Positions 2,438-47,878 of a DNA stretch of 64,000 bases are shown here, piece by piece. This DNA comes from Oscillospiraceae bacterium (lineage in GTDB: Bacteria > Bacillota > Clostridia > Oscillospirales > SIG627), in contig SVRV01000009.1 of assembly GCA_015064635.1 (NCBI GenBank), positions 8,282 to 72,281 of the forward strand, written 5' to 3'. Numbering within the stretch: position 1 is the first letter of the stretch; each line of letters starts with the position of its first letter. The translations under genes were made by a program, and so were the position numbers. Below the pieces are notes generated by a model, which saw nothing but the letters and a program-made list of their open reading frames with translations, did not search any database and was not told the DNA's origin.

Positions 2438-2447
2438 AACGTTTAAA

Positions 2448-2487
2448 ATCGGCACTTTTCCTTTTTGAAAATGTGCTGATTTTTTTA
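2448..2487 (+). terminator. Rho-independent terminator
   Basis: ATCGGCAC (2448-2455) pairs with GTGCTGAT (2473-2480), followed by TTTTTTT. Confidence 0.5.
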
Positions 2488-2555
2488 TTGTATTCGATAC
2501 AAAAAAATTAAAGCGTTTTTCCTTCTTTTTTTGTGACATTATTGAGGAAAAACTC

Positions 2556-2584
2556 TTGCAAAAATATATTTTTTATGCTATAAT
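2556..2584 (+). promoter_or_regulatory. SigmaA-type promoter of dnaA
   Basis: TTGCAA (2556-2561), a 17-nt spacer, then extended -10 TGcTATAAT (TATAAT at 2579-2584). Confidence 0.6.
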
Positions 2585-2635
2585 ACAATAGTTAAAATAT
2601 ATATATTATGTAGAAAATTTTCGAAGGGGAAAATA

Positions 2636-4036
2636 ATGGATTCATTGAATGAGATATGGGCTTGTGTCTTATCTAATATCGCAAGCAGCGGCGAATTTTC
2701 GGAGCCTACATACAATCTCTGGTTCAGAGACCTTGAGCTTTTGAGCCTTACAAATAATTATGCCATTGTAGACACAAAAACTCAACTGAAAAAAGATATA
2801 ATTTCATCAAGATACATTTACACACTTGAAAAATATCTTGCCGACGTAATCGGTTTTGAAGTTCCTATCACACTTGAGGTATACGAGGAAACAAAATACG
2901 GCAAGGTAAAAATAATTGAAGAGCCTAAAAGACCTTCGTTCATTCTTGATGACGAAATTCCCGAAGAGGAAAGAGGAATAAAGGGTAACGTTGATGAGGA
3001 CGGACTTACACACGTTGCATATAATCCTCTCTATACCTTTGATAACTTCATTGTAGGCAATACAAATAAATTTGCACATGCGGCGTGTAAAGCAATTGCC
3101 GCCGATGCTGAGCATTCATACAATCCTTTGTTTATCTACGGCAGCTCAGGACTTGGAAAGACACATTTGCTTTACGCCATAACAAATGAGATAATACTTC
3201 GCCGTAAGAATACAAATGCGGTATATGTTCGAGGTGAGGATTTTGCAAACGAAATGATTACCTCACTTTCAAAGAAGGTACCCATGCAGTACTTCAGAGA
3301 CAAGTACAGAAAAGCCGATGTACTTCTGGTTGACGACGTGCAATTTATTGCGGGTAAGCCTTCGACACAGGAAGAATTTTTCCACACCTTCAATACACTC
3401 TATGAGGATAAAAAGCAAATCATTCTTGCCTGCGACCGTCCTGTAAAGGAAATACCCTCCCTTGAAGAAAGACTCAAGGCACGCTTTGAATGGGGACTTA
3501 CGGTAGATATACAGCCGCCGGATTATGAACTGAGATTTGCAATTTTAAAGAGCAAGGCAATAAAATTCGGACTTAATCTTTCGGACAATATTCTGATGTT
3601 TCTTGCAGACAACATAAAGGGAAATATCAGACGTCTTGAGGGTGCAATAAAGAGACTCCACGCAACATCCCTTTTAATTGAAACACAGCTCACCTTTGAC
3701 AAGGTTAAGGAGTGTCTTCAGGATATGTTCTCGGATTCCGTGCCGTCGGGTGTCACAATTGATGAAATATTTGAAATAGTATCAAAGAAATATTCTGTTG
3801 CCGTTGAGGATATCAAGGGCAAGAAGAGAACAAAAGAGCTTTCAAACGCAAGACATATAACCATTTACATCCTGCGTACCATTACAAATCTCTCTCTTTC
3901 GGATATCGGCGGATATTTCAGCATGCATCACACCTCTGTTTTATCTGCTTATTCAAAGATAAGCGAGGACATAAAGGTTGACCCGGCACTTGAGCACAAC
4001 ATAAACGAAATGATAAGAACAATAACAGGGCAGTGA
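2636..4036 (+). CDS. dnaA: Chromosomal replication initiator DnaA
   Basis: 466 aa with Walker A GSSGLGKTHLL, an AAA+ core and a C-terminal DnaA-box-binding domain (HTSVLSAYSKI). Synteny with dnaN-recF-gyrB. Confidence 0.97.
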   Translation: MDSLNEIWACVLSNIASSGEFSEPTYNLWFRDLELLSLTNNYAIVDTKTQLKKDIISSRYIYTLEKYLADVIGFEVPITLEVYEETKYGKVKIIEEPKRPSFILDDEIPEEERGIKGNVDEDGLTHVAYNPLYTFDNFIVGNTNKFAHAACKAIAADAEHSYNPLFIYGSSGLGKTHLLYAITNEIILRRKNTNAVYVRGEDFANEMITSLSKKVPMQYFRDKYRKADVLLVDDVQFIAGKPSTQEEFFHTFNTLYEDKKQIILACDRPVKEIPSLEERLKARFEWGLTVDIQPPDYELRFAILKSKAIKFGLNLSDNILMFLADNIKGNIRRLEGAIKRLHATSLLIETQLTFDKVKECLQDMFSDSVPSGVTIDEIFEIVSKKYSVAVEDIKGKKRTKELSNARHITIYILRTITNLSLSDIGGYFSMHHTSVLSAYSKISEDIKVDPALEHNINEMIRTITGQ

Positions 4037-4356: not shown

Positions 4357-5472
4357 ATGAAAATAAAGGCTGAAAAGAAAGTACTGCTTGAGGCTGTCAC
4401 ACCGACACTTTGCGCACTTTCCTCAAAAGCACTTATTCCTGCATTGGAATGTATCTATGTAAAAGCTGAAAACGGAGTTCTTACAATTACCGGATATGAC
4501 CTTTCAAAGGGTGTCAGAACCGAAAACAACGTAAATATCGAAGAAGAGGGTTCACTTCTTCTCAATGCACAGAAGCTTAACTCAATAATAAGAACACTTC
4601 CCGAGGGTATGGTTGAAATAACCACAGATAAAGACTATAAGGTTACTATCGTTTCGGGAAAAATCAAGTTTGAAATAATAGGTCTTCCCACAGACGGATA
4701 TCCCTCCATTCCCGAGCTTGCAGGTGACAGAAGCTTTGATATACCAAAGGGAATACTCAAGAAGCTTTGTCAGCAGCTTTTGTTCTCGGTTTCTGTTGAT
4801 GAAAAGAGACCTCAGCTCACAGGTATCAACTTCGAAATAAACGAGGATAAAATGACTCTTGTTTCCTGCGACGGCTTCAGACTTTCCATAAGACACGAAA
4901 AGGTTAAGTCAAATGAGCTGATGCAATTTATTGTACCCGGAAGAACACTTTCCGAGCTTATGAAGCTTCTTGACGACAGTGACGATATAATCACGGTTGA
5001 GCTTACAAATAAGCATATGATAATGCATTTTGATAACCTCTATTTCTTCTCAAGACTTGTAGAGGGTGAATATATTGATTATCTCAAGCCCATTCCCAAG
5101 GATACAACAATTGAAGTAAAAGTAAAGCTTGACGATATTATTGCAAGCTGCGAAAGAGCAAGTCTTGTAATTGATGAAAGAGTAAAGAGCCCCGTAAAAA
5201 TAACGGTTGCTCCCGGCGGACTTCTTCTTTCCTGCGACAGTGTAAACGGAAAAGTAAGAGACGAAATTCCCGCAAGTACAACGGGTGAGCTTGATATAGG
5301 CTTCAACAACAAGTATTTACTTGATGCCTTGAGAGCGGCTGCAATGTGCGGTGAGGAAGAGGTTGTGCTCAGAATGAAATCTCCTCTTGTGGGAATGAGT
5401 ATTCAGCCCATTGATCACGATTCATTTTTCTATCTTGTACTCCCTGTGAGACTTAACGATGAGAATAATTGA
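4357..5472 (+). CDS. dnaN: DNA polymerase III beta sliding clamp
   Basis: 371 aa, clamp-typical length and position after dnaA. RBS AAGGAG upstream. Confidence 0.95.
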   Translation: MKIKAEKKVLLEAVTPTLCALSSKALIPALECIYVKAENGVLTITGYDLSKGVRTENNVNIEEEGSLLLNAQKLNSIIRTLPEGMVEITTDKDYKVTIVSGKIKFEIIGLPTDGYPSIPELAGDRSFDIPKGILKKLCQQLLFSVSVDEKRPQLTGINFEINEDKMTLVSCDGFRLSIRHEKVKSNELMQFIVPGRTLSELMKLLDDSDDIITVELTNKHMIMHFDNLYFFSRLVEGEYIDYLKPIPKDTTIEVKVKLDDIIASCERASLVIDERVKSPVKITVAPGGLLLSCDSVNGKVRDEIPASTTGELDIGFNNKYLLDALRAAAMCGEEEVVLRMKSPLVGMSIQPIDHDSFFYLVLPVRLNDENN

Positions 5473-6538
5473 GCTGAAAGCAGAAAATTTCAGAAATATT
5501 GAAAACGAAACCTTAAGTTTTGATATCGGAACAAATTTGATTTTCGGTAACAATGCCGAGGGCAAAACAAATATTGTGGAAGCAATATATTATTTTGCAA
5601 ATTCCAAGAGCTTCAGGACGTCAAGTGACAAGGAGCTTATAAGATTTGGATGTGACGAGGCACGTCTTACGGCAATTTTTGAAGACGGCGGAAGAAAATA
5701 TCAATATGACGTTGTGATATCAAAGGCAAATAAAAGAGCTTTTTACTACAACAAAATAAAAATCACAAAGATGAGCGAGTTCTTTGGAAACTTCAGAGCA
5801 GTTTTATTTGTACCCGAGCACTTAAAAATAGTCAAAAACGGTCCGGGTGAAAGACGTGCACTCATTGATTCATCCTTGTGTCAGCTTAAAAAATCATATA
5901 TCTCCGAGCTTTACAGATATACAAAGCTTGCCTCGGAAAAAAACGCACTTTTGCGTGATTATAAGGGCGGGGAATATGAAAACACAATGTTGGATATTTA
6001 TGATGAAAATCTGATTATCAGCTCGGCAAAAATCAGCGAGACCCGAAAAGAGTATTCATCAGAGCTTTTTGAAAGAGCAAAGAAGCATCTTTTTGACATG
6101 TCGGGTGACAGACTTGAGTTTTCTTATAAAATGTCTGGTCTGTCCGGTGACAGAGATGCCATGACCTTTTATAAAGAGTTGATTCCCGCCTCAAGAAAGA
6201 GAGATATTGCGTATCATTCCATAACCGCAGGTGCGGGAAGAGATGATATTGAAATATTTGTAAACGGTACTAATCTCAGGCAATACGGCTCCCAGGGACA
6301 GCAAAGGTCGGCTGTGGTTGCCATGAAGCTTGCAGAGGGCGAGCTTGCCGAAGAAAAGACGAAAAGTGCACCGATTTATCTCTTTGACGATATACTGTCG
6401 GAGCTTGACGAGCACAGAAGAGAATATATTCTTTCAAAGCTTCGTGACAAGCAGGTAATTGTAACCTCCTGTCTGGGAGATGAGGAAGGAATTTACAGCG
6501 GAAAAAGGATATTTGTTGAAAAAGGCAAATACCGTTAG
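5459..6538 (+). CDS. recF: DNA replication/repair protein RecF
   Basis: Walker A GNNAEGKTN, ABC-like signature SQGQQRS, Walker B YLFDDILSELD. Overlaps the dnaN end. Confidence 0.93.
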   Translation: MRIIELKAENFRNIENETLSFDIGTNLIFGNNAEGKTNIVEAIYYFANSKSFRTSSDKELIRFGCDEARLTAIFEDGGRKYQYDVVISKANKRAFYYNKIKITKMSEFFGNFRAVLFVPEHLKIVKNGPGERRALIDSSLCQLKKSYISELYRYTKLASEKNALLRDYKGGEYENTMLDIYDENLIISSAKISETRKEYSSELFERAKKHLFDMSGDRLEFSYKMSGLSGDRDAMTFYKELIPASRKRDIAYHSITAGAGRDDIEIFVNGTNLRQYGSQGQQRSAVVAMKLAEGELAEEKTKSAPIYLFDDILSELDEHRREYILSKLRDKQVIVTSCLGDEEGIYSGKRIFVEKGKYR

Positions 6539-21094: not shown

Positions 21095-23038
21095 TTATTT
21101 AATATATTTTGCAGCTATTTCGTCAATTTTACCGTTTGCCTTTAGTGCAAGTATAGCCTCGTTGATTTTATCAAGCAGCTTGGTGTTTCCCTTTGCAACG
21201 TAGACAACGTAATCCTCTTCGGCATAAGAAGTACTGAGAATTTTTATTCCTTTATTTGCCGCTACAAGCTCCTTAGCAAGCTTGTTGTCAATAATAACAC
21301 AGTGAATGTCGTCATTGATAAGGGCGGATATTGCATCATTTCCATTGATGTAGCTGCTGACTCTATCGGGTCCAAAATCGTCAAGCGCATAAATAGCACT
21401 TGTTGACCCCGTTTGTACGCCTATCTTTTGGTTTGCAGTTTCGGCATAAAGGTAATCTACTGAAGTGATGTCTGAACCCTCTTTGACGATAATTGACATA
21501 TTGTTTGTGATGTAGCTAATAGAGTAGTTTGCCTTTTGGCGTCGTTCCTCTGTAACAGTTACACCCGCCATAGCAAAGCTTGCATTTCCATTTGTAACGG
21601 CGTCAATGACGTATTCGAAAGCCATATCCGAAATTTTAAGCTCTACTCCGATATACTCTGCAATAGCCGAAGCAATTTCTACATCAATGCCTACAATTTT
21701 CTCTCCTTCGTAGTATTCAAAAGGGCGGAAGTAAGCATTTGTTGCCATTATGAGAGTTCCTTCTATTTCAGGCTCTTCCTCCGTTACCTCTGTACTTTTT
21801 TCGTAATGTATTTTTGCATTACAGTCTCTATTCCAGTTTTTGTCCCATCCGTCCGTGGTGCCTTTAATATAGATGCTTTGAGCATTTGTCCAATATGCGA
21901 AAGCAGCATCGCCCACATTTGTAACACTTGCGGGAACAGTAATTTCCGAAAGGCTTGTGCAACCGGAGAAAGCCCACCAATCTATAGTTGTTACGCCGTC
22001 AGGGATAGTAATGCTTTCAAGACTTGTACAGCCGCCAAAGAATTCTCTGGGAATTTTTGTTATGCCTTTCGGGAGAGTAACGCTTTTAAGATTTGTGCAT
22101 CCTTGGAAGGTAGCCTCATATATATCTGTTGCTTTATCGGGGAGATGGATACTTGTGAGGCTTGTGCAACCGCAGAATGACCAGTCACCGATACCCGTCA
22201 CGCTGTCGGGAATAGTGATGCTTGTGAGACTTTCGCAAGTACCAAAGGCACCATATCCGATGTGGATAAGTGTACTTGGTAAAGTGATGCTTGTCATTTT
22301 GGTAAAGGCTTGGAAGGAATCCATACCCAGCGATGTTATACCCTCTTGCACTATGACCTTTTTGGTTTTGTCGGCATTATCAAACCATTTGTCATCAAGA
22401 TAATTATAACGGTTACTTACATAAATCGCACCTGTTCCCGAAACAATGAGTGTTCCGTCTTCATCAAGTGTCCAGGTGATATTATCGTCACATTTGCCCG
22501 AAGAGATAATTTTAGATTTCGGTTCTTCCACCTTGGGTTCTTCCGCCTTAGGTTCTTCCGCCTTAGGTTCTTCCACCTTAGGTTCTTCCACCTTGGGTTC
22601 TTCCACCTTAGGTTCTTCCACCTTGGGTTCTTCCACCTTGGGTTCTTCCGCCTTAGGTTCTTCCACCTCGGGCTCTTCCTCAGGAAGTGAAGGAATGGGC
22701 TCAACCTTTGGTTCTTCGGGTGTTTCTGTGGGGGGGTCAATCGGTTCTTCTTCGGGCTCTGTCGGCTCATTGGGAGTTACAACCTCGGGGAGCTCTTCGG
22801 GCACTTTCGGCTCGGTTATTTCGCCGGGGGTTACAATCTCCGGAATTTCTCCGGGTGAGGCAACACTCGGCTCTTCGTCTTTTGGCTCAACCCTTGGTTT
22901 TTCGGGAGCTTCTACGGGATTGTTTTCGTTAACACTTGTTTCTGCTGTTTCATCAGAGCAGGAGACCATCATAAAAATTGCTGTGAAAAGTGACAAAATG
23001 AGAATAAGGGACAATCTTTTTGTGTTGATTCTTTTCAT
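21095..23038 (-). CDS. Chimeric lipoprotein: Pro/Glu-rich linker + BspA-type LRR domain + family-3 solute-binding domain
   Basis: ATG at 23038 with RBS. Lipobox FMMVSCS. EEPKV repeats. LRR_5-like repeats (ITIPDSVTGIGDWSFCGCTSLTSI...). The C-terminal 230 aa look like SBP_bac_3 (GIDVEIASAIAEY...GVQTGST...). Confidence 0.8.
   Translation of the reverse strand: MKRINTKRLSLILILSLFTAIFMMVSCSDETAETSVNENNPVEAPEKPRVEPKDEEPSVASPGEIPEIVTPGEITEPKVPEELPEVVTPNEPTEPEEEPIDPPTETPEEPKVEPIPSLPEEEPEVEEPKAEEPKVEEPKVEEPKVEEPKVEEPKVEEPKAEEPKAEEPKVEEPKSKIISSGKCDDNITWTLDEDGTLIVSGTGAIYVSNRYNYLDDKWFDNADKTKKVIVQEGITSLGMDSFQAFTKMTSITLPSTLIHIGYGAFGTCESLTSITIPDSVTGIGDWSFCGCTSLTSIHLPDKATDIYEATFQGCTNLKSVTLPKGITKIPREFFGGCTSLESITIPDGVTTIDWWAFSGCTSLSEITVPASVTNVGDAAFAYWTNAQSIYIKGTTDGWDKNWNRDCNAKIHYEKSTEVTEEEPEIEGTLIMATNAYFRPFEYYEGEKIVGIDVEIASAIAEYIGVELKISDMAFEYVIDAVTNGNASFAMAGVTVTEERRQKANYSISYITNNMSIIVKEGSDITSVDYLYAETANQKIGVQTGSTSAIYALDDFGPDRVSSYINGNDAISALINDDIHCVIIDNKLAKELVAANKGIKILSTSYAEEDYVVYVAKGNTKLLDKINEAILALKANGKIDEIAAKYIK
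22521..22680. repeat. 15-bp tandem repeat, about 10-11 copies, in-frame within the CDS
   Basis: GGTTCTTCCACCTT(G/A) units encode (E/A)EPKV repeats on the minus strand. Confidence 0.9.
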
Positions 23039-23212
23039 TTTAAAGTCCTTTCTAATACGGAGATAGCTCTCGCAAAAATCTATATTTATTTTATAACAAA
23101 AAAACAATAATGTCAACAAAAGTACTCATATATTTTCGGCATTTGAGCATATACTTGACATTCTGACCTTATTTATGGTATAGTTTAGTATAAATTTGTA
23201 AGGAGATTTATT

Positions 23213-24676
23213 ATGAGATATATACCCGAAGAAAGTGGAGTTATCATATATTGGGACCTGCCCGAGGGCTTTACCGATGGTGAAATGTACAGTGTTACCC
23301 TTAACGGAAACACTGTTGAAACAGAGAAATGCCATGTACATTTCACGGGGCTTGAGCCTGAAACGGAGTACATTGCGGTATGGTCATACAAGGGAACAAG
23401 GGAAGAAATCACTGTCCGCACACTGCCCGTAAGAAAAAGAGTAAATGTACTTGACTTCGGTGCGGTGGGAGACGGTGTGACACTTAACACGGCGGCTTTG
23501 CAGAAGGCTATTGACAGCTGTGAAAACGGAGTTGTTTATATCCCCGAGGGCGACTATATGACAGGCTCTCTCTTTTTGCATTCGGATATGGAGCTTTATC
23601 TTGAAAAGGGTGCCATTCTTCATGGAACAACCGAGGTCAACGACTATTCTCCCAAGATAAAGAGCCGTTTTGAGGGCAAGGAAATGATGTGCTATTCTGC
23701 ACTTATAAATATAGGAAGCCTTAACAGAGATGCGGTTACCTGTCGCAATGTGCGTATTTGCGGAGAGGGTACGGTTTACGGCGGAGGCAGAACTCTTGCG
23801 GATAATGTGGTAAGTGTTGAAACAGAGCTGATGAAGGCGGAGCTTGAGGCAATCGGAGAGGGAATAAAGGAATACGAGCTTCCCCAAACCATACCCGGCA
23901 GAGCGAGACCGAGGCTTATTAATATAAGCTCATCGGAGAACATTGTCATCAGCGGTATAACTGTTGCCAACGGACCTTGCTGGAATGTGCATATGATATA
24001 TTCAAGGAACATTGAGACCTGCGGCGTTACCTTCCGTTCGAGCGGAGTGTGGAACGGTGACGGATGGGACCCCGATTCTTCAACAGATTGTACCATTTTC
24101 GGATGCGAGTTTTACACGGGCGACGATGCTGTTGCCATTAAATCGGGTAAGAATCCCGAGGGCAATGTGATAAACCGTCCCTCCGAGAGAATAAGAATAT
24201 TCGATTGTAAGAGTAATTACGGACACGGAGTGACTATCGGCAGCGAAATGTCGGGCGGAATCAACGATGTGCGCATATGGAATTGCGATATGTCAACATC
24301 TGTTTACGGAGTTGAGATAAAGGCTACCAAAAAAAGAGGCGGATATGTAAGAAACGTACATGTCAGCAATACCAAGGCTTGCAGAATCCTTCTCCATTCG
24401 GTAGGCTACAACGATGACGGCGAGGGTGCGCCCACAGCCCCTGTTTTTGAGGACTGTACCTTTGAGAACATAGAGCTTACCGCAAGAATGCATACTCAGG
24501 AAAATGAGGACGTGGACTGCGAGGCAATCGAGGTGTCAGGCTTCGATATTCCGGGTCATTACGCAAAAAATATCAAATTTAAAAATATAACCATAGGCAC
24601 AGGCGACGGAAGAAAGCACACGGTTTTGCTGTCCTGCTGCGACGGAATAAGCTTTGAAGGTATAAAGGCGAAATAA
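23213..24676 (+). CDS. Glycoside hydrolase family 28 (polygalacturonase-like), no signal peptide
   Basis: LDFGAVGDGVTLNTAALQKAIDSC, NGDGWDPDSS and GDDAVAIKSG are typical of GH28 beta-helix enzymes. The N-terminal ~70 aa look Fn3-like. Confidence 0.85.
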   Translation: MRYIPEESGVIIYWDLPEGFTDGEMYSVTLNGNTVETEKCHVHFTGLEPETEYIAVWSYKGTREEITVRTLPVRKRVNVLDFGAVGDGVTLNTAALQKAIDSCENGVVYIPEGDYMTGSLFLHSDMELYLEKGAILHGTTEVNDYSPKIKSRFEGKEMMCYSALINIGSLNRDAVTCRNVRICGEGTVYGGGRTLADNVVSVETELMKAELEAIGEGIKEYELPQTIPGRARPRLINISSSENIVISGITVANGPCWNVHMIYSRNIETCGVTFRSSGVWNGDGWDPDSSTDCTIFGCEFYTGDDAVAIKSGKNPEGNVINRPSERIRIFDCKSNYGHGVTIGSEMSGGINDVRIWNCDMSTSVYGVEIKATKKRGGYVRNVHVSNTKACRILLHSVGYNDDGEGAPTAPVFEDCTFENIELTARMHTQENEDVDCEAIEVSGFDIPGHYAKNIKFKNITIGTGDGRKHTVLLSCCDGISFEGIKAK

Positions 24677-24710
24677 AACAAAGGCTCAAGTGCTGAATAT
24701 TACCAAAAAT

Positions 24711-24742
24711 ATCCCGACAGAAATCTGTCGGGATAAAATTTT
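24711..24742 (+). terminator. Rho-independent terminator of GH28
   Basis: ATCCCGACAG-AAAT-CTGTCGGGAT, followed by AAAATTTT. Confidence 0.75.
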
Positions 24743-24875
24743 AATTTGGAGCTTCTGTGGGATTGTTTTCGTTAACGCTTGCTTCTGCTGTTTCATTAGA
24801 GCAGGAGACCATCATAAAAATTGCTGTGAAAAGTGATAAAGTAAGGGATAATCTTTTGGCATGGATTTTCTTCAT
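24741..24875 (-). pseudogene. 44-codon remnant (signal peptide only) of a paralogue of the LRR/SBP lipoprotein gene
   Basis: Translates to MKKIHAKRLSLTLSLFTAIFMMVSCSNETAEASVNENNPTEAPN*. DNA at 24748-24895 parallels 22905-23055. Confidence 0.65.
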
Positions 24876-24927
24876 TTGTCTGTGTCCTTTCTCTTTTTGT
24901 TTTTACCACTTTTAATGCGTGCTTTTT

Positions 24928-24973
24928 CTATTCCGAATTTGGTCGACTTTTCCACTAAATTCGGAATAGATTA
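24928..24973. repeat. 46-bp hairpin repeat, copy 1
   Basis: CTATTCCGAATTTGGTCGACTTTTCCACTAAATTCGGAATAGATTA, identical to 26299-26344. It has 13-bp inverted arms and contains the ATPase stop codon. Confidence 0.9.
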
Positions 24974-26224
24974 CATATCAAGACTGTTTTCGTTCAAAAG
25001 AAAATCAAAAATTCCTATGGTAGTAATTCCGTAGTCATCGCGTTTTGGCTTAATATCATCCTTAACGACTATAATTTTTTTGAAAGAGTCCTGAACTTTT
25101 AAAAGAGAGCGCTTTTCTTGTTTTTCCTTTGCATCATTTGGCATATCAAATGCCGATTGAATATAGTATTTATTGTTTCCTTTTGTGGCTATAAAATCAA
25201 TTTCAAGTCTTTTTTGAGTTTTTTTGCCATTATTGTCAGCTTCGTAGGTTTCCACGACTCCCACATCTACGGAAAAACCGCGAATTTTCAATTCGTTAAA
25301 GATAATATTTTCCATGATGTGGTTTTCTTCCTGCTGTCTAAAATTGAGAAGTGCATTTCTTATTCCAACATCGGTAAAATAATACTTTGAAGGTGTTTCT
25401 ATATATTTTCTTCCTTTGACATCGTATCTTTTTGCTTTGTCGGTAAGGAAGGCATCATTCAGGAAATCCAAATATTTTTTTATTGTTTTTTCCGTGATTT
25501 TACTGTTTTTTATGCTGTGGAAAGTGTTTGCCAGCTTTGTTGGATTGGTGAGTGAGCCCACAGACGAGGCAAGAATATTTATAAGCTCCTCAAGCTCTTC
25601 CATGTTGCGTATTTTGTTTCTTTCAAGTATGTCGCTTATATAAACCTTTTTCAAAAGAGAGGTAAGATATTCCACCTTCATTTCGTCATCGCTTCTCATA
25701 AGTATCTGAGGGAGTCCGCCATAGGTATAGTAATCCTTCCATGCCATTGTTACACTTCCGTTGTATGCACTGAAATATTCGGAAAATGACAGGGGATTAA
25801 CATGAATTTCATCCCCTCTTCCGCGAAACTCGGTTAGAATATCACTTGACAAAAACTTCGAATTACTTCCTGTAACATATACATCAAGGTTTCTGATATG
25901 CGAAAGTCCGTTGACCAAATCGGTGAAGTCTCCCACATATTGTATCTCGTCTAAAAAAAGATAGTATTGCTCTTTGTCATTCAGTTGCTCTCTTATATGA
26001 TAGTATAGTGCTTTTGGATCTCTTAATTCCTCATTTATTATGTCGTCAAGAGCAATTTCTATAATATGGTCTTCCTTTATTCCTTTTTCTACCAGATAAT
26101 CATGATATAAATTAAAAAGCAAATATGATTTTCCGCAACGACGTATACCTGTAACAACCTTTACAAGTCCGTTACATTCCCTCTTTATGAGTTTATTCAA
26201 ATATAAATCACGCTTAATTACCAT
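24971..26224 (-). CDS. AAA-family ATPase with DUF4143-type C-terminal domain
   Basis: Walker A GIRRCGKSYLL and Walker B YLFLDEIQ. ATG at 26224 follows GGGGGA. The ORF-track start at 26239 is a TTG. Confidence 0.85.
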   Translation of the reverse strand: MVIKRDLYLNKLIKRECNGLVKVVTGIRRCGKSYLLFNLYHDYLVEKGIKEDHIIEIALDDIINEELRDPKALYYHIREQLNDKEQYYLFLDEIQYVGDFTDLVNGLSHIRNLDVYVTGSNSKFLSSDILTEFRGRGDEIHVNPLSFSEYFSAYNGSVTMAWKDYYTYGGLPQILMRSDDEMKVEYLTSLLKKVYISDILERNKIRNMEELEELINILASSVGSLTNPTKLANTFHSIKNSKITEKTIKKYLDFLNDAFLTDKAKRYDVKGRKYIETPSKYYFTDVGIRNALLNFRQQEENHIMENIIFNELKIRGFSVDVGVVETYEADNNGKKTQKRLEIDFIATKGNNKYYIQSAFDMPNDAKEKQEKRSLLKVQDSFKKIIVVKDDIKPKRDDYGITTIGIFDFLLNENSLDM

Positions 26225-26298
26225 ATTTTTCCCCCGCAACTTAAAATTTCTGTCCTTTTGATTTGATTATATCATATCATAGACACGAAGTCAACATC

Positions 26299-26344
26299 CT
26301 ATTCCGAATTTGGTCGACTTTTCCACTAAATTCGGAATAGATTA
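26299..26344. repeat. 46-bp hairpin repeat, copy 2
   Basis: Identical to 24928-24973, in direct orientation. Confidence 0.9.
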
Positions 26345-26434
26345 TGCATGTTTTTTGTCAACCTCATCACCTCTTGTATTTTTTTGCCCGCTTTGTAAAT
26401 AATAAGGGCGAAAACAAATATACAAAGAGGTATT

Positions 26435-26800
26435 ATGAAAACTATATTCTTATTTTTAATAACGGGACTTTCTGCCGGGTTTATCAACGGACTTTTCGGG
26501 ACGGGGGGAGCGTTGCCGCTGCTTGCGCTTTTCGCTTATCTGGCACTGAAATCCGAGAAGGTTTTTGCAACCGCCAGCTTTGCGGTGCTCCTTTTGTCGG
26601 CGGTCAGCTTGGTTTTGTATTTGAAAAACGGAACGCTCACTCTTGACTCCTTCAAGTCACATCTTGGTGATACGGTAGTGCCTGCAGTGCTGGGCGGTGC
26701 TGTGGGAAGTCTGCTGCTTGCAAAAATTGCACCGAAGCTTCTTAAAAAGGTCTTTTTTGCCCTTGTAATAATAGGCGGTGCGGGAATGATGTTCAAATGA
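26435..26800 (+). CDS. TauE/SafE (TSUP) family half-size membrane protein, N-half
   Basis: 121 aa, about 4 TM, GLFGTGGA motif. Confidence 0.75.
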   Translation: MKTIFLFLITGLSAGFINGLFGTGGALPLLALFAYLALKSEKVFATASFAVLLLSAVSLVLYLKNGTLTLDSFKSHLGDTVVPAVLGGAVGSLLLAKIAPKLLKKVFFALVIIGGAGMMFK

Positions 26801-27150
26801 CATTTCTTGTAGCGGTACTGACGGGATTAGGGGTTGGCTCGGGCGGTATTTATATTCTCTATCTTACCTTAATAAAAGACATCCCCCAAGCCGAGGCTCA
26901 GGGGATGAATCTTATCTTTTTTATTACGGCAACCCTTGCCGCCGCTACCGTCAATTTAATAAAGAAGCGAATATCATTTGTTTGTATCGCATTTACCGTG
27001 CCGCTTGGAATACTTGGCGCCGTTGGCGGAAGCTATGTTGCCTCTGTGGTAAAGTCCGAAACGCTCGGCATAATGTTCGGTGTTCTTTTAATGGTTATCG
27101 GCATTTCGGGATTTATAAAGCTTCGGAAAAAAGGTAAATCAGACGGTTAA
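26797..27150 (+). CDS. TauE/SafE (TSUP) family half-size membrane protein, C-half
   Basis: 117 aa, about 4 TM, GLGVGSGG motif. ATGA overlap with the preceding half. Confidence 0.75.
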   Translation: MTFLVAVLTGLGVGSGGIYILYLTLIKDIPQAEAQGMNLIFFITATLAAATVNLIKKRISFVCIAFTVPLGILGAVGGSYVASVVKSETLGIMFGVLLMVIGISGFIKLRKKGKSDG

Positions 27151-27897
27151 AATCATTCCGTCAAACGCCGTTACCATGTCAAGGGCTGCGAAAATCTCTA
27201 CACATTCCTCGTGGGAGGGGTGAAGGGTGCGGGCAAGGTGGGAGGCTACCATAACACCGTTTTCTTTCATCATTTCAAGTCTTTTCATTTCTGCGGTCAT
27301 CTTACGAAGCATGGGCACTGTGTTATGCTCAAAGAGACGCCAGTCATCAAAGTCACCTACAGTGCAATCCAGTATTGCCATGTCAAAGCGGTGTGCCTTC
27401 ATTTCCTCCCACGTGGGACGTAAAAACCATGCACCGTCAAGACCGTAGAATATCTCCTTGCCGTCGGCAGTTTTTATTATGTAGTGGAAGGAGTTCAGTA
27501 CATCGTCATGATTTGCGAGAAGAGGCAAAACGGTGTATGTACCGAGAGTTACGCTCTTGTATATTTCGGGGGTGATAAAGGTCACGTTTGGAGTATCCCC
27601 GATTCTTTCTCTCACGGGATTTGAGCAGAAAACCGTTATATTGCAATTTTTTGCAAGTCTTTTCACCGAGTCTGCATTTACATGGTCACCGTGATTGTGG
27701 GTGACCAATACATATTTAACTCCGTCAAGAATTGCAGAGTCGTTTTTTTCGGCATAATCGAAGATATGCGCTCCCGGGTCAACCAGAAGGTCACGGTTTA
27801 TGAGAGTTGATGAATTGCGGCGGAAAAATTCGCCCTCTTTTCTGTCATTGATATTCCAATCTGCGGCACCTGTGCCAAGAAAAAGTATGCTGTTCAT
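27139..27897 (-). CDS. MBL-fold metallo-hydrolase
   Basis: HNHGDH motif, 252 aa. Confidence 0.8.
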   Translation of the reverse strand: MNSILFLGTGAADWNINDRKEGEFFRRNSSTLINRDLLVDPGAHIFDYAEKNDSAILDGVKYVLVTHNHGDHVNADSVKRLAKNCNITVFCSNPVRERIGDTPNVTFITPEIYKSVTLGTYTVLPLLANHDDVLNSFHYIIKTADGKEIFYGLDGAWFLRPTWEEMKAHRFDMAILDCTVGDFDDWRLFEHNTVPMLRKMTAEMKRLEMMKENGVMVASHLARTLHPSHEECVEIFAALDMVTAFDGMILTV

Positions 27898-27907
27898 AAT
27901 TGTTCTC

Positions 27908-29500
27908 CTAATTATTTTTAAGAAAGTTTTCTCCGAAGGCTTTTAATTCTTCGGGCTTCAAATATTTGTATATTCCGTACTCTGAGCCTTTTTTGTAGAG
28001 TATAGCATCAATGTCGGACAAGAAATAAATGCCGCATTCAACATACGCCTTTATTTTCATGGTGTCGAGGCTTACCAGGACACTCTTTCCGCTGTATTGA
28101 TACTCTGTTATGAAAAGGGTGTTACTGTCTGCAAAGGCTATTTCTGATGCTTCGCAAAGCTCAAAGCCTATATCAATGGTACAGCCTGTGCTGTCCGTTA
28201 TGCTTCCGTCAGGATTCAGCGTCACCTTTTTGTCTCCGTGGATGAATTCTTTTCCGACAGAGGGGACATTCTTTTCGGTGTAGCTTTCATCCGCTCCGTC
28301 AAAGGCAGTTATCTTACCTTCGCCCAAAGCGAGCCAACCGCCGTTGTAAACTATTTTTTCAACAGCGTGAGAAACCTCTCTCTTTGTTGTTTCCTTTGTG
28401 GAAATATCATACTCAACGAGGTAGTTTTTGCGCTCGCTTCCCACATATTCATATGTGCCGAGGGCAATTACATCTCCCATTGACGAAATGGCTGTGGGAT
28501 ACGGCTCGTTTATATCAAGCTTTTGGTGAACATCGTAGGAAACCTTGTATAAAAGCTCAACGGTGTCCGAGCTTTCCGCAACCGTTGCAATTCTGCCGCC
28601 ATTACAGTCGGCGGACTTGCGTGGAGTAGCAAATCTGTAAGAATCGCCGAGTCGGAGAGTGTCCTCTTCGGGGAAGAGGGGACTTTTCGGCTTGTTTGAA
28701 AAAAGCTCTGCCTTGGTGGACAAAAAATCCTTCGTTGCGATTTGGACTGTACCGTCACCCGCTCGGCACATGAGAATTTCGCTGCCCGCCTCTGTGTCAA
28801 AGACGGTTTTGCCCGAATTCGCATCAAGTGCCGAGAGCCTTGACCCATTTGCTACAATAATGCTGTGATAGGGGACAACCTCGCCGCTTTCGTTATACAT
28901 TTCGTGGGTGAGAGGGAATATGTTCAAATATCCGTCGGTTATTTCAATGTCGGATATCCATTCACCGTTTGTCACTCTGCCGTTTTCAACCTTGTACTCC
29001 ACCCCGTCATAAACAAAGGGAGTGCTGTCGGGAATTTCGGCATCTGCCTCATCGCCTTTCATGTCAAAAGCCTTGTTTTCTATGAAAAGCAGGTCGCCTT
29101 CAAAGTGAAAATTGCCCTTGGGAAGTGTTTTTATTATACCGGCTTCTTTGTAATCAATGAGATACACCGCCGTACTGTCTGAGGCGGCAAGAAAAGCACC
29201 GTTGGGTGAAAGACAAAGGCTTTCCGCTTCTGATGGAAGTGTAACGTATTTTGTCAGAACTCTTGTCTTGTTACTGTAAGTCCCCGAAATATCTGCAATA
29301 ATGCGCTCGGCATCGGGGTGAGTGTAGACCGAAAGCGCTGCTTCAAGTGAGGGGAGGAGCTTGCCTTCCTCAAAAAGAGACAATGCCTTGGCAACGGCTT
29401 CGGGGCTTGGTATATCGTCTACAGGCTTTTCTACTTCGGTTTTATCTGAACAGGATGCAAGTATAAGTAAAGTCAAAACCAGTAAAATCAGTTTTTTCAT
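27908..29500 (-). CDS. Hypothetical lipoprotein
   Basis: Signal peptide plus lipobox (LLILASCS), 530 aa. No family recognised. Confidence 0.7.
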   Translation of the reverse strand: MKKLILLVLTLLILASCSDKTEVEKPVDDIPSPEAVAKALSLFEEGKLLPSLEAALSVYTHPDAERIIADISGTYSNKTRVLTKYVTLPSEAESLCLSPNGAFLAASDSTAVYLIDYKEAGIIKTLPKGNFHFEGDLLFIENKAFDMKGDEADAEIPDSTPFVYDGVEYKVENGRVTNGEWISDIEITDGYLNIFPLTHEMYNESGEVVPYHSIIVANGSRLSALDANSGKTVFDTEAGSEILMCRAGDGTVQIATKDFLSTKAELFSNKPKSPLFPEEDTLRLGDSYRFATPRKSADCNGGRIATVAESSDTVELLYKVSYDVHQKLDINEPYPTAISSMGDVIALGTYEYVGSERKNYLVEYDISTKETTKREVSHAVEKIVYNGGWLALGEGKITAFDGADESYTEKNVPSVGKEFIHGDKKVTLNPDGSITDSTGCTIDIGFELCEASEIAFADSNTLFITEYQYSGKSVLVSLDTMKIKAYVECGIYFLSDIDAILYKKGSEYGIYKYLKPEELKAFGENFLKNN

Positions 29501-44320: not shown

Positions 44321-44525
44321 CTTGAGGCTCCTCCTTCCATTATTTGGAAAGTCAAGGAATGTTCATGCCGAGTCCAGCAGAGGACTATTCCTATAAATCC
44401 ATAATTAGCAAGGCGTATTATATCACACCTTTTTCAAAAAAGCAACCCCTTTTTTGATTTTTTTAATTTTTTTGCTGTATATATTGATTTTTATCTCAAT
44501 GTATGATAGAATTACCACACAATGT

Positions 44526-44609
44526 GCACCTGTGGCGGAATTGGCAGACGCGCCAGACTTAGGATCTGGTGTCTTTGATGTGCAGGTTCAAGTCCTGTCA
44601 GGTGCACCA
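44526..44609 (+). tRNA. tRNA-Leu (anticodon UAG), CCA encoded
   Basis: Acceptor GCACCTG/CAGGTGC, anticodon arm CCAGA-CTTAGGA-TCTGG, long variable arm, T-loop TTCAAGT, discriminator A plus CCA. Confidence 0.9.
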
Positions 44610-44829
44610 ACAAAAAGATACCCCATCGGGGTATTTTTTTGTTGGTTATATAATTGGGAAGGACTTGAACCTCATGGAGGGACAAAGCGTGAAGAAAACA
44701 GTCCAGTGGACTGTTTTTAGCTTTGTGTCCGAGGGCTATGCCCGAGGAGAGAGCAGGCAAAGCCTGCGTCAAGTCCTGTCAGGTGCACCAAAGTATAACC
44801 TCAACTTTAATAAAAAGTTGGGGTTATTG
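44607..44829. repeat. Island-flanking direct repeat, copy 1 (interrupted by a 75-bp insert)
   Basis: 44607-44688 plus 44764-44829 parallel 47731-47878. Contains the tRNA 3'-end copy CAAGTCCTGTCAGGTGCACCA at 44770-44790. Confidence 0.85.
44612..44641 (+). terminator. Rho-independent terminator after tRNA-Leu
   Basis: AAAAAGATACCCC-ATC-GGGGTATTTTTTT. Confidence 0.7.
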
Positions 44830-44877
44830 TTTTTTGGCTTAAAATAAGGCTTTTCGGAACTTTTACAACAATAAACA

Positions 44878-44910
44878 AACCGCTTCGATTAATTTCCGAA
44901 GCGGTTTTTC
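44878..44910 (+). terminator. Hairpin terminator at the left edge of the islet
   Basis: AACCGCTTCG (44878-44887) pairs with CGAAGCGGTT (44897-44906), followed by a T-run. Confidence 0.6.
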
Positions 44911-45065
44911 ATGTTTTTAGATGCTATTGGTAAAAGTAATGGGGTTCAGATGGTTGAAAAGGGGTTCAGATGACACAAAAAGGGTTCATGTGGCGGAAAG
45001 ATACTTATTGTATGTAGACTTTTTGTATTCGTTTTTGCTAATATATTATTATGGGGGGTGCAGAT

Positions 45066-45281
45066 ATGGATATCATAAAGGTGTTTGGTACAAATTTAAA
45101 GAAATATCGTACTGCTATGGGAATATCCCAAGAAGCATTTGCAGAAAAATGTGGGATGCATCGTACTTATATCAGTGCAATAGAATGTTACCGCCGCAGT
45201 ATAGCTTTGGAGAATGTTCAGAGAATCGCCGATGCGCTTGAAATTGACGCATACAAATTGTTCATAGATAAAAAAATTTAG
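45066..45281 (+). CDS. R-M controller (C) protein, XRE-family HTH
   Basis: GISQEAFAEKCGMHRTYISAIE...IALENVQRIADALEI matches the C-protein HTH signature. Lies directly upstream of the nuclease candidates. Confidence 0.8.
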   Translation: MDIIKVFGTNLKKYRTAMGISQEAFAEKCGMHRTYISAIECYRRSIALENVQRIADALEIDAYKLFIDKKI

Positions 45282-45304
45282 ATAAGATAGAAAGGAATTA
45301 GACT

Positions 45305-45649
45305 ATGCCGAGAGCCGAAAAAGAATTTATTTTAAATTACGCCACCAATAGATGGCAACTTAATTTCAAAAAGAACGTTGGACCTACTTCCGATTCCATC
45401 AGACTTTGTAACCCCACATCTTATGATGATTGGAAAAACTATTATTATAGCAACGTAAGATCTCGCGAACATATAGATAACTTGGGGCATTCGTTGTATC
45501 AGCATATTCGAGACGATCTTCCTGGCGAAATGCGTTTCCATCCCACACTAATCACATCTATCAATTTACAAGATTGTGTTGATTATATGCACAAACTTGT
45601 GATTGACAGAGTATACAATGGTTATATGAAGGAGCACGGAAAACTATGA
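45305..45649 (+). CDS. Candidate restriction endonuclease subunit/ORF 1
   Basis: 114-aa ORF after GAAAGGA, in the position C-R convergent with M. No family recognised. Confidence 0.5.
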   Translation: MPRAEKEFILNYATNRWQLNFKKNVGPTSDSIRLCNPTSYDDWKNYYYSNVRSREHIDNLGHSLYQHIRDDLPGEMRFHPTLITSINLQDCVDYMHKLVIDRVYNGYMKEHGKL

Positions 45650-45978
45650 CACCTTCCCTTGTGATAGCTGGTATTCCATTTTATGATGCTCCAAGTGAGG
45701 TAGAGGGTTCTCCTTATTGGGTAGATTTGTGGACTGATGTCAATGGTTATAAAATTGGTTTGCAGATCAAACCCTCAACTTACAAAGCTGCCAGCATTTC
45801 GATTTATATGGGCAAATCACGATCTTCTGAAGAAAGAGGTCACAAAGCTTTTCAGCGTGATTATGGTGGAAAGGTTTTTATCGTAATGCCTGAAAACGGA
45901 GTGGTTTCCAAAGATGTTGAGAAGAAAATAATTGCAGAACGTGATCTCTTACTGAAAATGCCACCTAAGAATGTCTAA
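45646..45978 (+). CDS. Candidate restriction endonuclease subunit/ORF 2
   Basis: 110 aa with an ATGA overlap to ORF 1. Possible PD-(D/E)xK-like VD...LQIK. Confidence 0.5.
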   Translation: MTPSLVIAGIPFYDAPSEVEGSPYWVDLWTDVNGYKIGLQIKPSTYKAASISIYMGKSRSSEERGHKAFQRDYGGKVFIVMPENGVVSKDVEKKIIAERDLLLKMPPKNV

Positions 45979-46023
45979 AACGAAGACTGCGAGACAATTC
46001 AAAATGAGTTGTCTCGCAGTTGT

Positions 46024-47295
46024 TTATTTAGGTAATGAATTCAAGAATTTTTTTTGACAAGCATAGTCGAAAGTAGTATCAACATCTACAAATCCGGTGC
46101 GAATCAAGTGATTGTTGATAAATGTCTTATTATCAAGGTATACATAGCACATCAATACGTTATCAGAATCGTATTTTTCGCTATCATACTTTAAAAAAAC
46201 TTTTCTCTTATTGAATTTATTCTGCAAAAAAACTATCGCTTGACTGCTATGTTCCGGCTTTTCTTTTATGCCGAGTAATTTTATAATCAAACCATTACTT
46301 AATTCAATTTTGTCTGGAGATATTATTCTTTTTACGGTAAATAAATCTTCTCGTTTTGCTTCACTTGAATCTATTTTTGAGCCAAACTGAAGCTTCTTTA
46401 CATCAACTTTCTTATCCATTCGATGCGGGTCAACGAATATGTACGGAAGATCATCAAAAGTTTGGTTTATTCCAAGTGTATCCTCGTAGAATTTCAGCTC
46501 AAAATCATCGAATATCAAGCGAGAACCGTTAATCTTTTCGTTAATTATCGGTGCAAACTCTTTGTTGATTTCGTACCCAATTGAGTTTCGTCCGAGATTC
46601 TTCGCCGCCAAAGATGTTGTTCCGCTCCCAGCGAATGGATCAAATACAGTTTCCCCAGCGAATGAGAACATCTTAATTAAGCGTTTCGGCAATTCTTCTG
46701 GGAACATAGCTATATGTCCCATCTGTTTAACACCGTTGAAATTCCAATGTGAAGAAAAATACTGTCCCCATTCTTCTTTTGTCATAGCAGACTGTTCTTT
46801 TTGTTGTTGAGTAGGCTTAGGTGCGTTTCCTAACTTTTTGAACAGCAGTATAAACTCGTAATCCATTTTGAGAATTCCGTTACGTGGATAAGGAAAACTT
46901 CCCATAATTGCTCCACCGCCAGAGGTATTCATCGTAGTTGTTTTCTGCCAAATGATCGCTCCCATATAGTCCATACCGAGAGATTCGCAGAAACGTATAA
47001 TTTCCGTTCTGATTGGAATAACTTTGTATCTTCCGTAATACACGGAACGAGCAAATTGGTCTCCTATGTTAATACATAATCTACAGCCATCCGAAAGGAC
47101 ACGATGGCATTCTTTCCATACTAAGTTCAAGTTATTTATGTATTCTTCGTAACTATCATTAAAACCAATTTGATCTTCTGTGCCGTAGTCCTTTAACTGC
47201 CAGTACGGAGGAGAGGTTATGATTAACTGTACTGATTTATCCTTAATTTGATTGAGCGAACGACTGTCGCCAAATACTATTTTATGTTCAGTCAT
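46024..47295 (-). CDS. Beta-class N4/N6 DNA methyltransferase with a C-terminal SNase/OB-like extension
   Basis: SPPY (motif IV) precedes DPFAGSGTT (motif I). The last ~110 aa resemble thermonuclease (LLGIKEKPE...MCYVYLDNKTFINNHLIRTGF). Confidence 0.88.
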   Translation of the reverse strand: MTEHKIVFGDSRSLNQIKDKSVQLIITSPPYWQLKDYGTEDQIGFNDSYEEYINNLNLVWKECHRVLSDGCRLCINIGDQFARSVYYGRYKVIPIRTEIIRFCESLGMDYMGAIIWQKTTTMNTSGGGAIMGSFPYPRNGILKMDYEFILLFKKLGNAPKPTQQQKEQSAMTKEEWGQYFSSHWNFNGVKQMGHIAMFPEELPKRLIKMFSFAGETVFDPFAGSGTTSLAAKNLGRNSIGYEINKEFAPIINEKINGSRLIFDDFELKFYEDTLGINQTFDDLPYIFVDPHRMDKKVDVKKLQFGSKIDSSEAKREDLFTVKRIISPDKIELSNGLIIKLLGIKEKPEHSSQAIVFLQNKFNKRKVFLKYDSEKYDSDNVLMCYVYLDNKTFINNHLIRTGFVDVDTTFDYACQKKFLNSLPK

Positions 47296-47309
47296 AATTA
47301 ATACCTTTC

Positions 47310-47522
47310 TTATTTGACTTGTTCACCATTTGACAAAACGAAGTATTGTTCATATCTCGCATCAAGTACTTTTGCGATTAGATTAAGTTCTTCTTGGGTA
47401 ACAGTATTCCGTTTAAGTTTTGCATTGAAATTTTGAGGGGTTTGGTTAATTCTTCGAGCAAGTTCAGATAAACTTATACCTGTTCTAACACATAAAACTC
47501 TTATTTGTTCAGAAGTAGTCAT
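47310..47522 (-). CDS. XRE-family HTH protein upstream of the methyltransferase
   Basis: 70 aa with HTH GISLSELARRINQTPQNFNAKLKR. Lies 14 nt upstream of the MTase start. Confidence 0.8.
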   Translation of the reverse strand: MTTSEQIRVLCVRTGISLSELARRINQTPQNFNAKLKRNTVTQEELNLIAKVLDARYEQYFVLSNGEQVK

Positions 47523-47730
47523 AAATAGCCTCCATAAACATTATCTAATTGATATTATAAATCATTTGTTTGATAATGTCAACTACAAATTGTGAATACA
47601 CAAAATAATCAACCAACTTCCTTTTCTGAGTATACAGTTATTAACAATTTCTGTGTCAATGAAACTTTTGATACAAGGGGGTACAAAATTCCTTATAGGG
47701 TGTGCATTTTATCAAAATTAGAGTTATTTC

Positions 47731-47878
47731 CCAACAAAAAGATACCCCATCGGGGTATTTTTTTGTTGGTTATATAATTGGGAAGGACTTGAACCTCATG
47801 GAGGGACAAAGCCTGCGTCAAGTCCTGTCAGGTGCACCACATAATAACCCCAACTTTGATAAAAAGTTGGGGTTATTG
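47731..47878. repeat. Island-flanking direct repeat, copy 2
   Basis: Contains terminator-like ATACCCCATCGGGGTAT, the tRNA 3'-end copy at 47819-47839, and hairpin ATAACCCCAACTT/AAGTTGGGGTTAT. Confidence 0.85.

Follow-up and report, generated by a model that had tools for sequence, protein, structure and literature searches.

How does a single gene come to be bracketed by two identical hairpins, with no recombinase nearby? The question is raised by a 64,000-nucleotide stretch of the genome of an Oscillospiraceae bacterium (contig SVRV01000009.1, positions 8,282 to 72,281; hereafter the window), in which the gene for an ATPase lies between two copies of a 46-nucleotide (nt) hairpin-forming sequence, which we refer to as the 46-mer. 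An initial annotation of this DNA, made from the letters alone, had likened the arrangement to cassettes that are mobilised through their hairpins, in the manner either of integron attC sites or of HUH transposases. We think it probable instead that foreign DNA of low guanine-plus-cytosine (GC) content, 1325 bp long and comprising a promoter and a single gene, was inserted into a pre-existing 44-nt palindrome, and that the palindrome was copied to both sides of the insert. The features that matter for this reading are the following, with coordinates given in the window.

24928 to 24973, no strand: left copy of the 46-bp repeat, read here as target duplication; its last 3 nt (TTA on the plus strand) are the TAA stop codon of the ATPase gene.
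24971 to 26224, minus strand: coding sequence (CDS) of the ATPase, 417 amino acids (aa), with AAA_14 and DUF4143 (PD-(D/E)xK nuclease-type) domains, PDC-S01 in PADLOC; ATG at 26224.
24974 to 26298, minus strand: putative inserted DNA, 1325 bp, holding promoter, 5' untranslated region and ATPase coding sequence and nothing else; missing from the empty allele (L028, below); GC 0.32 to 0.38.
26266 to 26294, minus strand: predicted promoter of the ATPase gene, of sigma-70 type, with TTGACT and a TG-extended TATAAT 17 nt apart; 11 of 12 positions agree with the consensus, the best promoter match of the region.
26299 to 26344, no strand: right copy of the 46-bp repeat, same sequence as the left; in the orientation of the gene it lies upstream of the ATPase promoter and stops 4 nt short of the -35 box.

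Both copies of the 46-mer (CTATTCCGAATTTGGTCGACTTTTCCACTAAATTCGGAATAGATTA) were recovered in direct orientation with 0 mismatches, and the repeat-to-repeat spacing was measured as 1371 bp, the value given in the initial annotation. No third copy with up to 3 mismatches was present in the window (0 were expected in shuffled sequence), nor did the whole assembly (2.47 Mb in 57 contigs, 90% complete) hold any copy, at up to 3 mismatches, of the 42-nt core of the palindrome (the 46-mer minus its trailing ATTA) beyond these two. With only two copies in the genome, both of them here, the possibility that the 46-mer is a terminator repeat spread across the genome falls away. When the 46-mer was folded as DNA, the 13-nt arms that had been pointed out were found to extend to a 17-bp stem that includes one G-T pair, with 2 further inner pairs; the hairpin had a free energy of -13.7 kcal/mol, which none of 200 shuffles equalled (z = -6.2). 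The palindrome proper spans 24927 to 24970 (44 nt), so that repeat and palindrome differ by only 1 nt at the left end and 3 nt at the right. The hairpin lacks a T-run and was not called as a terminator; no transfer RNA (tRNA) was found in the 46-mer, which does not form the end of a tRNA gene or of any other gene.

An empty allele of the locus indicates that palindrome and gene are separable. A survey with the exact 121-aa product of the neighbouring TauE permease gene yielded 22 metagenome contigs of the same species, with 10 places listed. The ATPase gene was found in most of these; the filled allele occurs in at least 6 independent metagenome assemblies, and 1 of the 10 places listed was empty. 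This empty allele, contig L028 (JGI 3300024269), contains the flanking GH28 glycoside hydrolase gene, a lipoprotein-remnant open reading frame (ORF) and the TauE gene, and lacks the ATPase gene. Across the site it reads ...gcgtgctttttCTATTCCGAATTTGGTCGACTTTTCCACTAAATTCGGAATAGATTAtgcatgtttt..., in which a single 46-mer joins the left flank to the right (...gcgtgctttttCTATTCC...GGAATAGATTAtgcatg...), and it is 100% identical to the window over 22586 to 24973 and 26299 to 28110, stretches of about 2.4 and 1.8 kb. Moreover, in two other species of the genus (G002 and G009) the GH28 and TauE genes are 55 to 80 bp apart, and neither the ATPase gene, the hairpin nor the remnant was found at the GH28–TauE locus of either. 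Because the empty site holds one 46-mer and the other species lack the gene, the palindrome appears to have existed at the site without the gene, and positions 24974 to 26298 (1325 bp) would represent the insert. What the locus carries thus seems to be a discrete one-gene unit whose presence/absence polymorphism reflects recent insertion or loss; since the flanks are 100% identical over 4.2 kb, the gain or loss would be younger than any point mutation there. The initial annotation had allowed that all relatives might carry the gene with both repeats in a conserved context, which L028, G002 and G009, all of them without the gene, contradict.

Could the empty allele be an artefact of assembly, in which the 46-bp repeat was collapsed and the cassette is in truth fixed in the species? 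Emptiness was seen in just 1 of the 10 places listed (of 22 contigs), and short-read graphs do break at the repeat, as illustrated by the Logan contig L035, which consists of exactly 1325 + 2 x 30 nt. However, unique sequence extends for about 2.3 kb on one side and 1.8 kb on the other side of the single repeat in the empty contig, an assembler run with k greater than 46 could make this junction only from real k-mers that bridge it, and the other species of the genus are without the gene. We consider an artefact of this kind extremely unlikely.

The insert itself appears to encode one protein. The sole substantial ORF between the repeats matched Pfam families AAA_14 (PF13173, E = 8e-32) and DUF4143 (PF13635, E = 2e-22), which agrees with the initial description of the only gene between the repeats as an AAA ATPase with a DUF4143-type C terminus, and the protein matched the PADLOC model PDLC04787 for PDC-S01 (COG1373) end to end (E = 4e-118). 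In an alignment of the family at 50 to 85% identity, the Walker A (GIRRCGKS) and Walker B (LDEIQ) motifs were invariant, as were the acidic residues D320, E341 and D343. An AlphaFold model of the ATPase (mean predicted local distance difference test score, pLDDT, of 83) resembled the Orc1/Cdc6, STAND and clamp-loader ATPases when compared with the Protein Data Bank using Foldseek, and the C-terminal part of the model resembled the nuclease-bearing proteins VC1899, Can2, Cdn1 and Card1; a search of solved structures by sequence gave no match. DUF4143 has been placed in the PD-(D/E)xK superfamily (PMC3424549). PDC-S01, whose family architecture is ATPase plus PD-(D/E)xK, is the fourth most common defence candidate across prokaryotes and has been reported as a candidate only (PMC12988326). 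The ATPase is most likely a nucleotide-driven DNA nuclease for phage or plasmid defence.

The boundaries and composition of the unit were also informative. Windowed GC content was 0.32 to 0.38 inside the unit versus 0.44 to 0.48 in the flanking genes, bearing out the earlier impression, gained by eye, that the gene is the more AT-rich. The insert is trimmed to a functional unit, beginning 4 nt before the -35 box and ending at the stop codon. As had been noticed, this TAA is formed by the last three bases of the left repeat; because the protein of the window (C terminus ...FLLNENSLDM*) ends where its homologues end, the stop codon probably is native to the insert.

If the hairpin were the cassette's own recombination site, of an attC-like type or of the HUH type associated with repetitive extragenic palindromic (REP) sequences, hairpin and gene would move together by site-specific recombination. 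Such a view draws on the position of the hairpin, which abuts the stop codon as attC sites do, on the presence of one hairpin copy on each side, and on the single gene that the unit holds. But the empty site keeps an identical hairpin, and the closest protein relatives of the ATPase (80 to 85% aa identity), which occupy three unrelated contexts (L036, L042 and L043), have neither a bracketing repeat nor the hairpin of the window. At the nucleotide level these three loci resemble the element of the window just over the stretch that opens 2 nt ahead of the ATG and closes with the stop codon, and among themselves the three share only the interval from about 17 nt before the -35 box through the stop codon. 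Since the empty allele keeps one 46-mer and the three closest relatives lack the hairpin, the hairpin does not travel with the gene and appears to be the duplicated target, not part of the cassette. No copy of the cassette in any other context was found between 85% and 99% aa identity, and therefore the donor has not been sampled.

Further observations weigh against a recombination site that the cassette brings with it. Outside this locus the genome has no copy of the 46-mer, which, read by eye, contains no GTTRRRY/RYYYAAC core. A scan of public genome and metagenome contig collections for the palindrome arms with a free loop gave no match, although this says little given that the collections scanned exclude records near the window. 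No match to Y1 HUH transposases (PF01797) was found in the 90% complete genome, the genome gave just two tyrosine-recombinase matches, on contigs C42 and C53, away from the locus (other transposase families were not screened exhaustively), and no cassette array, integron integrase or attI was found near the ATPase gene, whose flanks are the GH28 and TauE core genes. With that limit on the families screened, no recombinase lies near the gene, in line with the initial statement that no integrase or transposase is present in the window. As for the proposal of an attC- or HUH-type mobile cassette, the part that survives is the discrete, mobile-type unit of one gene, for which the empty allele speaks; the part that does not is mobilisation through the hairpin, which stays behind in the empty site and is missing from the relatives. 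We therefore regard site-specific recombination at the hairpin as very unlikely.

Another explanation, in which the two hairpins serve as operators that regulate the ATPase gene and are not the scar of an insertion, was suggested by the promoters of paralogous and homologous loci. At four such loci (L016, L017, L014 and, from another family of the order, L008), direct repeats of 22 to 42 nt, often palindromic, flank a sigma-70 promoter at a spacing of 73 to 75 bp, in the following positions.

L016, 2803 to 2917: repeat, promoter, repeat.
L017, 1378 to 1490: repeat, promoter, repeat.
L008, 1010 to 1105: repeat, promoter, repeat.
L014, 2806 to 2919: repeat, promoter, repeat.

One repeat copy stops 3 to 7 nt short of the -35 box, the second is located between -10 box and ribosome-binding site, and the repeat sequence differs between paralogues; these repeats are probably operator pairs for autoregulation. 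None of the paralogues in the same genome (L016, L017 and L018) has a bracketing repeat; they show the repeat-promoter-repeat layout instead. The upstream hairpin of the window occupies the position of the upstream copy in those loci, with 4 nt separating it from the -35 box. Against an operator function, the second copy in the window lies past the stop codon, 1.3 kb away, rather than in the interval from -10 box to start codon, the relatives at 80 to 85% identity use a different short motif, AAATCTGT, around the promoter, and the empty allele retains the hairpin without the gene. The operator explanation is already contradicted by this last finding, and we give it next to no credence. (In L008, the spacers around the ATPase gene, at 700 to 950 and 2440 to 2650, consist of short hairpins between recurring words, TCGATAT and ATGAATTG, in an array-like arrangement.)

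The genes around the unit define the site into which the insert would have come.

23213 to 24676, plus strand: GH28 pectinase-type glycoside hydrolase, the left flanking core gene; directly adjoins TauE in other species of the genus.
24710 to 24735, no strand: bidirectional intrinsic terminator common to the GH28 gene and the remnant ORF; outside the cassette.
24741 to 24875, minus strand: remnant ORF of 44 aa with a lipoprotein signal, copied at 85% identity from the 5' end of the leucine-rich repeat/solute-binding protein (LRR/SBP) lipoprotein gene (22905 to 23040).
26435 to 27150, plus strand: two half-size TauE/SafE permease ORFs, the right flanking core genes.

The initial annotation had placed the cassette next to a decayed lipoprotein gene, and the 44-aa ORF fits that description. 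In particular, the 5' end of the LRR_5/SBP_bac_3 lipoprotein gene, which encodes the signal peptide (22905 to 23040), is copied at 24748 to 24877 with 85 to 92% identity, giving a free-standing ORF downstream of GH28; this remnant copy was not found in G002 or G009. Filled and empty alleles alike contain the remnant ORF, which would therefore predate the insertion of the ATPase gene. The LRR/SBP lipoprotein gene itself contains a 15-nt tandem repeat of about 14 copies (22488 to 22697) that encodes a Pro/Lys/Glu-rich linker.

How might an insertion copy a palindrome to both of its sides? The true duplication is 42 to 46 bp, essentially the palindrome. We propose that the target site was the spacer between the lipoprotein-gene remnant and the TauE permease genes, and that the palindrome in it extruded as a cruciform. 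Two strands of the same polarity would then be cut at the four-way junction, at or near the bases of the palindrome, which would leave each flank capped by one full palindrome copy; the linear cassette would be joined between these ends, and subsequent unfolding and fill-in would give the order flank, palindrome, insert, palindrome, flank. Such a product would carry both copies in direct orientation, asymmetric loop included, and this is the arrangement observed. The enzyme that makes the cuts could be the cassette's own nuclease or one of the host. An overlap of 3 to 4 nt, TAA(T)/ATTA, at one of the junctions suggests joining by microhomology.

The same arrangement could arise by template switching. 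A fork or a repair polymerase stalled at the hairpin would have moved by microhomology to foreign DNA carrying the gene, returned upstream and recopied the hairpin, in a manner akin to microhomology-mediated break-induced replication or fork stalling and template switching (MMBIR/FoSTeS). No nuclease cuts at the hairpin bases would be required; the 3 to 4-nt overlap at one junction (the stop TAA(T) against the ATTA that follows the palindrome) is of the kind expected; the duplications found elsewhere in the family (see below) are 18 to 143 nt long and many of them are not hairpins, which fits a process that is neither enzymatic nor site-specific; and the same layout surrounds other types of cargo. 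However, no microhomology is detectable at the other junction, the agreement of duplication and palindrome to within 1 to 3 nt is needless for a template switch, and the insert is trimmed to a functional unit, from just ahead of the -35 box (by 4 nt) through the stop codon. On balance, we hold template switching to be unlikely, if a contender to be reckoned with.

We also compared the locus with other members of the family, for which 80 loci on genome contigs (55 to 84% identity) from Clostridia, Bacilli, Bacteroidales, Treponema, Victivallales, Lentisphaerae and Eggerthellaceae were sampled, 75 of them testable. To score bracketing, the 500 nt on one side of each gene were compared with the 500 nt on the other, and the longest exact match was taken. 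A bracketing exact repeat of at least 20 nt was detected in 8 of the 75 family loci, and one of at least 18 nt in 9 of 75 (lengths 18 to 143 nt). The corresponding counts for controls were 4 of 323 neighbouring genes (Fisher p = 3e-4) and 3 of 332 shifted intervals, one of which was a run of N; among the four bracketed neighbours, one was another DUF4143 gene and one a RhuM gene. The family repeats vary in sequence and length, about 4 of the 9 are hairpins or terminators, and the gaps between repeat and gene are 21 to 326 nt upstream and 19 to 184 nt downstream. There is thus no fixed stagger and no conserved end of the element in the family; because similarity to the closest relatives stops at the CDS and the repeat-gene gaps vary, there are no terminal repeats and there is no end recognition. 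In L008 (contig C46 of genome G026), the ATPase gene is bracketed by an 82-nt repeat (100% identical) and a 53-nt repeat (96%). In a Phascolarctobacterium metagenome-assembled genome (L089), two DUF4143 ATPase genes (719 to 1933 and 5001 to 6236) lie 3 kb apart, each with its own repeat (35 nt and 24 nt).

A scan of the genome of the window for isolated exact repeats of at least 28 nt, 400 to 6000 nt apart and with unrelated flanks, returned eight repeat pairs, the 46-mer included. One is an 82-bp exact repeat in the window (44607 to 44688 and 47731 to 47812), which brackets a 3.1-kb restriction-modification (RM) module adjoining tRNA-Leu (region 44524 to 47840). The repeat begins with the terminator hairpin after tRNA-Leu, and the tail of the tRNA gene, caagtcctgtcaggtgcacca, occurs in three copies at this bracket. 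The module contains the following genes.

45305 to 45649 and 45646 to 45978, plus strand: MjaI-like endonuclease, split in two ORFs.
46024 to 47295, minus strand: N6_N4 methyltransferase.
47310 to 47522, minus strand: HTH_26 C-protein.

A second pair, a 55-bp exact repeat on contig C15 (30786 to 31715; positions 2287 to 3216 of locus L130), brackets an 875-bp unit with a single 116-aa 23S_rRNA_IVP (PF05635) gene and includes a bidirectional terminator beside a tRNA gene, and a third, of 42 bp, brackets a DUF4417 gene. Among the contigs listed, no empty allele was found for the RM bracket or for the 23S_rRNA_IVP bracket.

A candidate for a free form of the family was considered separately. In Prevotella nigrescens DSM 13386, a 2630-bp circular record labelled as a plasmid (L149, NZ_CP133466.1) encodes a PDC-S01 homologue and a TaqI-like specificity-domain fragment, with no replication gene. 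The record is 100% identical to positions 3501 to 6130 of L150 (NZ_CP082843.1), a type IIG RM locus beside an Mpi-family invertase in another strain, and could be an excised circle or a product of assembly. As it equals a segment of a chromosomal RM locus and has no long repeat at its ends, we rejected it as a free circle of a PDC-S01 cassette.

Several of these findings weigh against an insertion by cruciform cutting, or against giving the ATPase a part in it. About 89% of the family loci, as well as the three closest relatives, have no bracketing repeat of at least 20 nt, so that either the scar is short-lived or it marks one of several routes of entry. The enrichment within the family may reflect a comparison of young accessory genes with mostly core neighbours, and not self-mobilisation. 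Only about 4 of the 9 family repeats are hairpins, and therefore the cruciform model cannot be general. The bracketed layout is also found on other cargo, in this genome on the 23S_rRNA_IVP gene and the RM module and elsewhere on a RhuM gene, which argues against a mechanism specific to the ATPase; an insertion route that is generic or provided by the host is at least as likely as self-mobilisation by the ATPase. Finally, because the flanks of the filled and empty alleles are identical, the direction of the event cannot be read from them, and L028 could reflect precise loss through recombination between the repeats rather than a site that was never filled.

The insertion type to which the locus would belong has precedents. 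Insertion with long target duplication was reportedly described for RM gene complexes by Nobusato et al. in 2000. We know of no mechanism that has been established for it since then. Furuta et al. (2010) documented long target duplications of variable length around RM genes of all types, with no other mobility gene; these duplications were of 46 to 47 bp and up to about 400 bp, the mechanism was limited to a suggested double-strand breakage, and the text makes no mention of a palindrome, hairpin or terminator (PMC2853133). Set beside the criteria of that study, the locus has direct repeats longer than 30 bp (46 bp, 100% identical), a conspecific empty site in which one repeat copy aligns to both flanks (L028), and an insert shorter than 20 kb (1325 bp, one gene) that contains no mobile element and whose repeat is neither multi-copy nor a tRNA end; it departs from them in its cargo, a single AAA_14 plus DUF4143 gene in place of both R and M genes. 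In its layout the locus matches the pattern of insertion with long target duplication, while its cargo falls outside the published definition. Like the RM cases, it comprises a small, low-GC unit that encodes a nuclease (here a predicted one), without transposase or integrase, between exact repeats unique in the genome and with a single-copy empty site. Unlike them, it carries a single ATPase-nuclease gene, its target is a 44-nt palindrome whose ends match those of the duplication, and its host is an uncultured Clostridia bacterium of the gut or rumen. What is new here is the cargo, a single PDC-S01 gene, together with the coincidence of duplication and palindrome; the type of insertion is already known.

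The locus was also compared with other systems. The protein of the window matches the PADLOC candidate PDC-S01 over its full length and has the same ATPase plus PD-(D/E)xK architecture, but PDC-S01 is a candidate defined by location in defence islands; the open-access literature that we searched contained nothing on gene movement or bracketing repeats of PDC-S01. Integron cassettes likewise hold one gene, its ORF followed directly by an imperfect hairpin. Here, however, the hairpin stays in the empty site, both copies are identical, the gene has its own promoter, and there is no integron integrase, attI or cassette array. With REP/REPIN-RAYT systems, which rely on Y1 HUH proteins, the locus shares a palindromic extragenic hairpin involved in rearrangement; unlike in these systems or in IS200/IS605 elements, the hairpin is single-copy apart from its duplication, and no Y1 HUH gene is found. 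As in cis-mobilisable elements (CIMEs) and tandem accretion at att sites, direct repeats bracket a module that lacks a recombinase of its own. In contrast to both, no integrase-bearing element shares an att-type core with the locus, the repeat does not mark the end of a tRNA gene or any other gene, and the repeats at other members of the PDC-S01 family differ in sequence and length.

These comparisons lead back to the part that the ATPase itself might have played. PDC-S01 genes could be minimal autonomous selfish elements whose own nuclease cuts extruded hairpins or cruciforms at the bases of their stems and thereby opens the break that a promoter-plus-gene fragment would then fill. We rate this idea as improbable. 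If it were true, it would explain why the duplication equals the palindrome, why the insert is trimmed with nucleotide precision and why the family is scattered across phyla at 55 to 65% identity, and it would show how nuclease genes in general come to be inserted with long target duplications. Irrespective of the enzyme involved, the locus indicates that hairpin brackets of this kind should not be taken for attC-like or REP-like sites. It is an unusually clean case, with only one gene as cargo, filled and empty alleles whose backgrounds are identical, and a duplication that coincides with a palindrome, and it yields both a concrete idea, that cuts may be made at the bases of an extruded hairpin, and a simple biochemical substrate.

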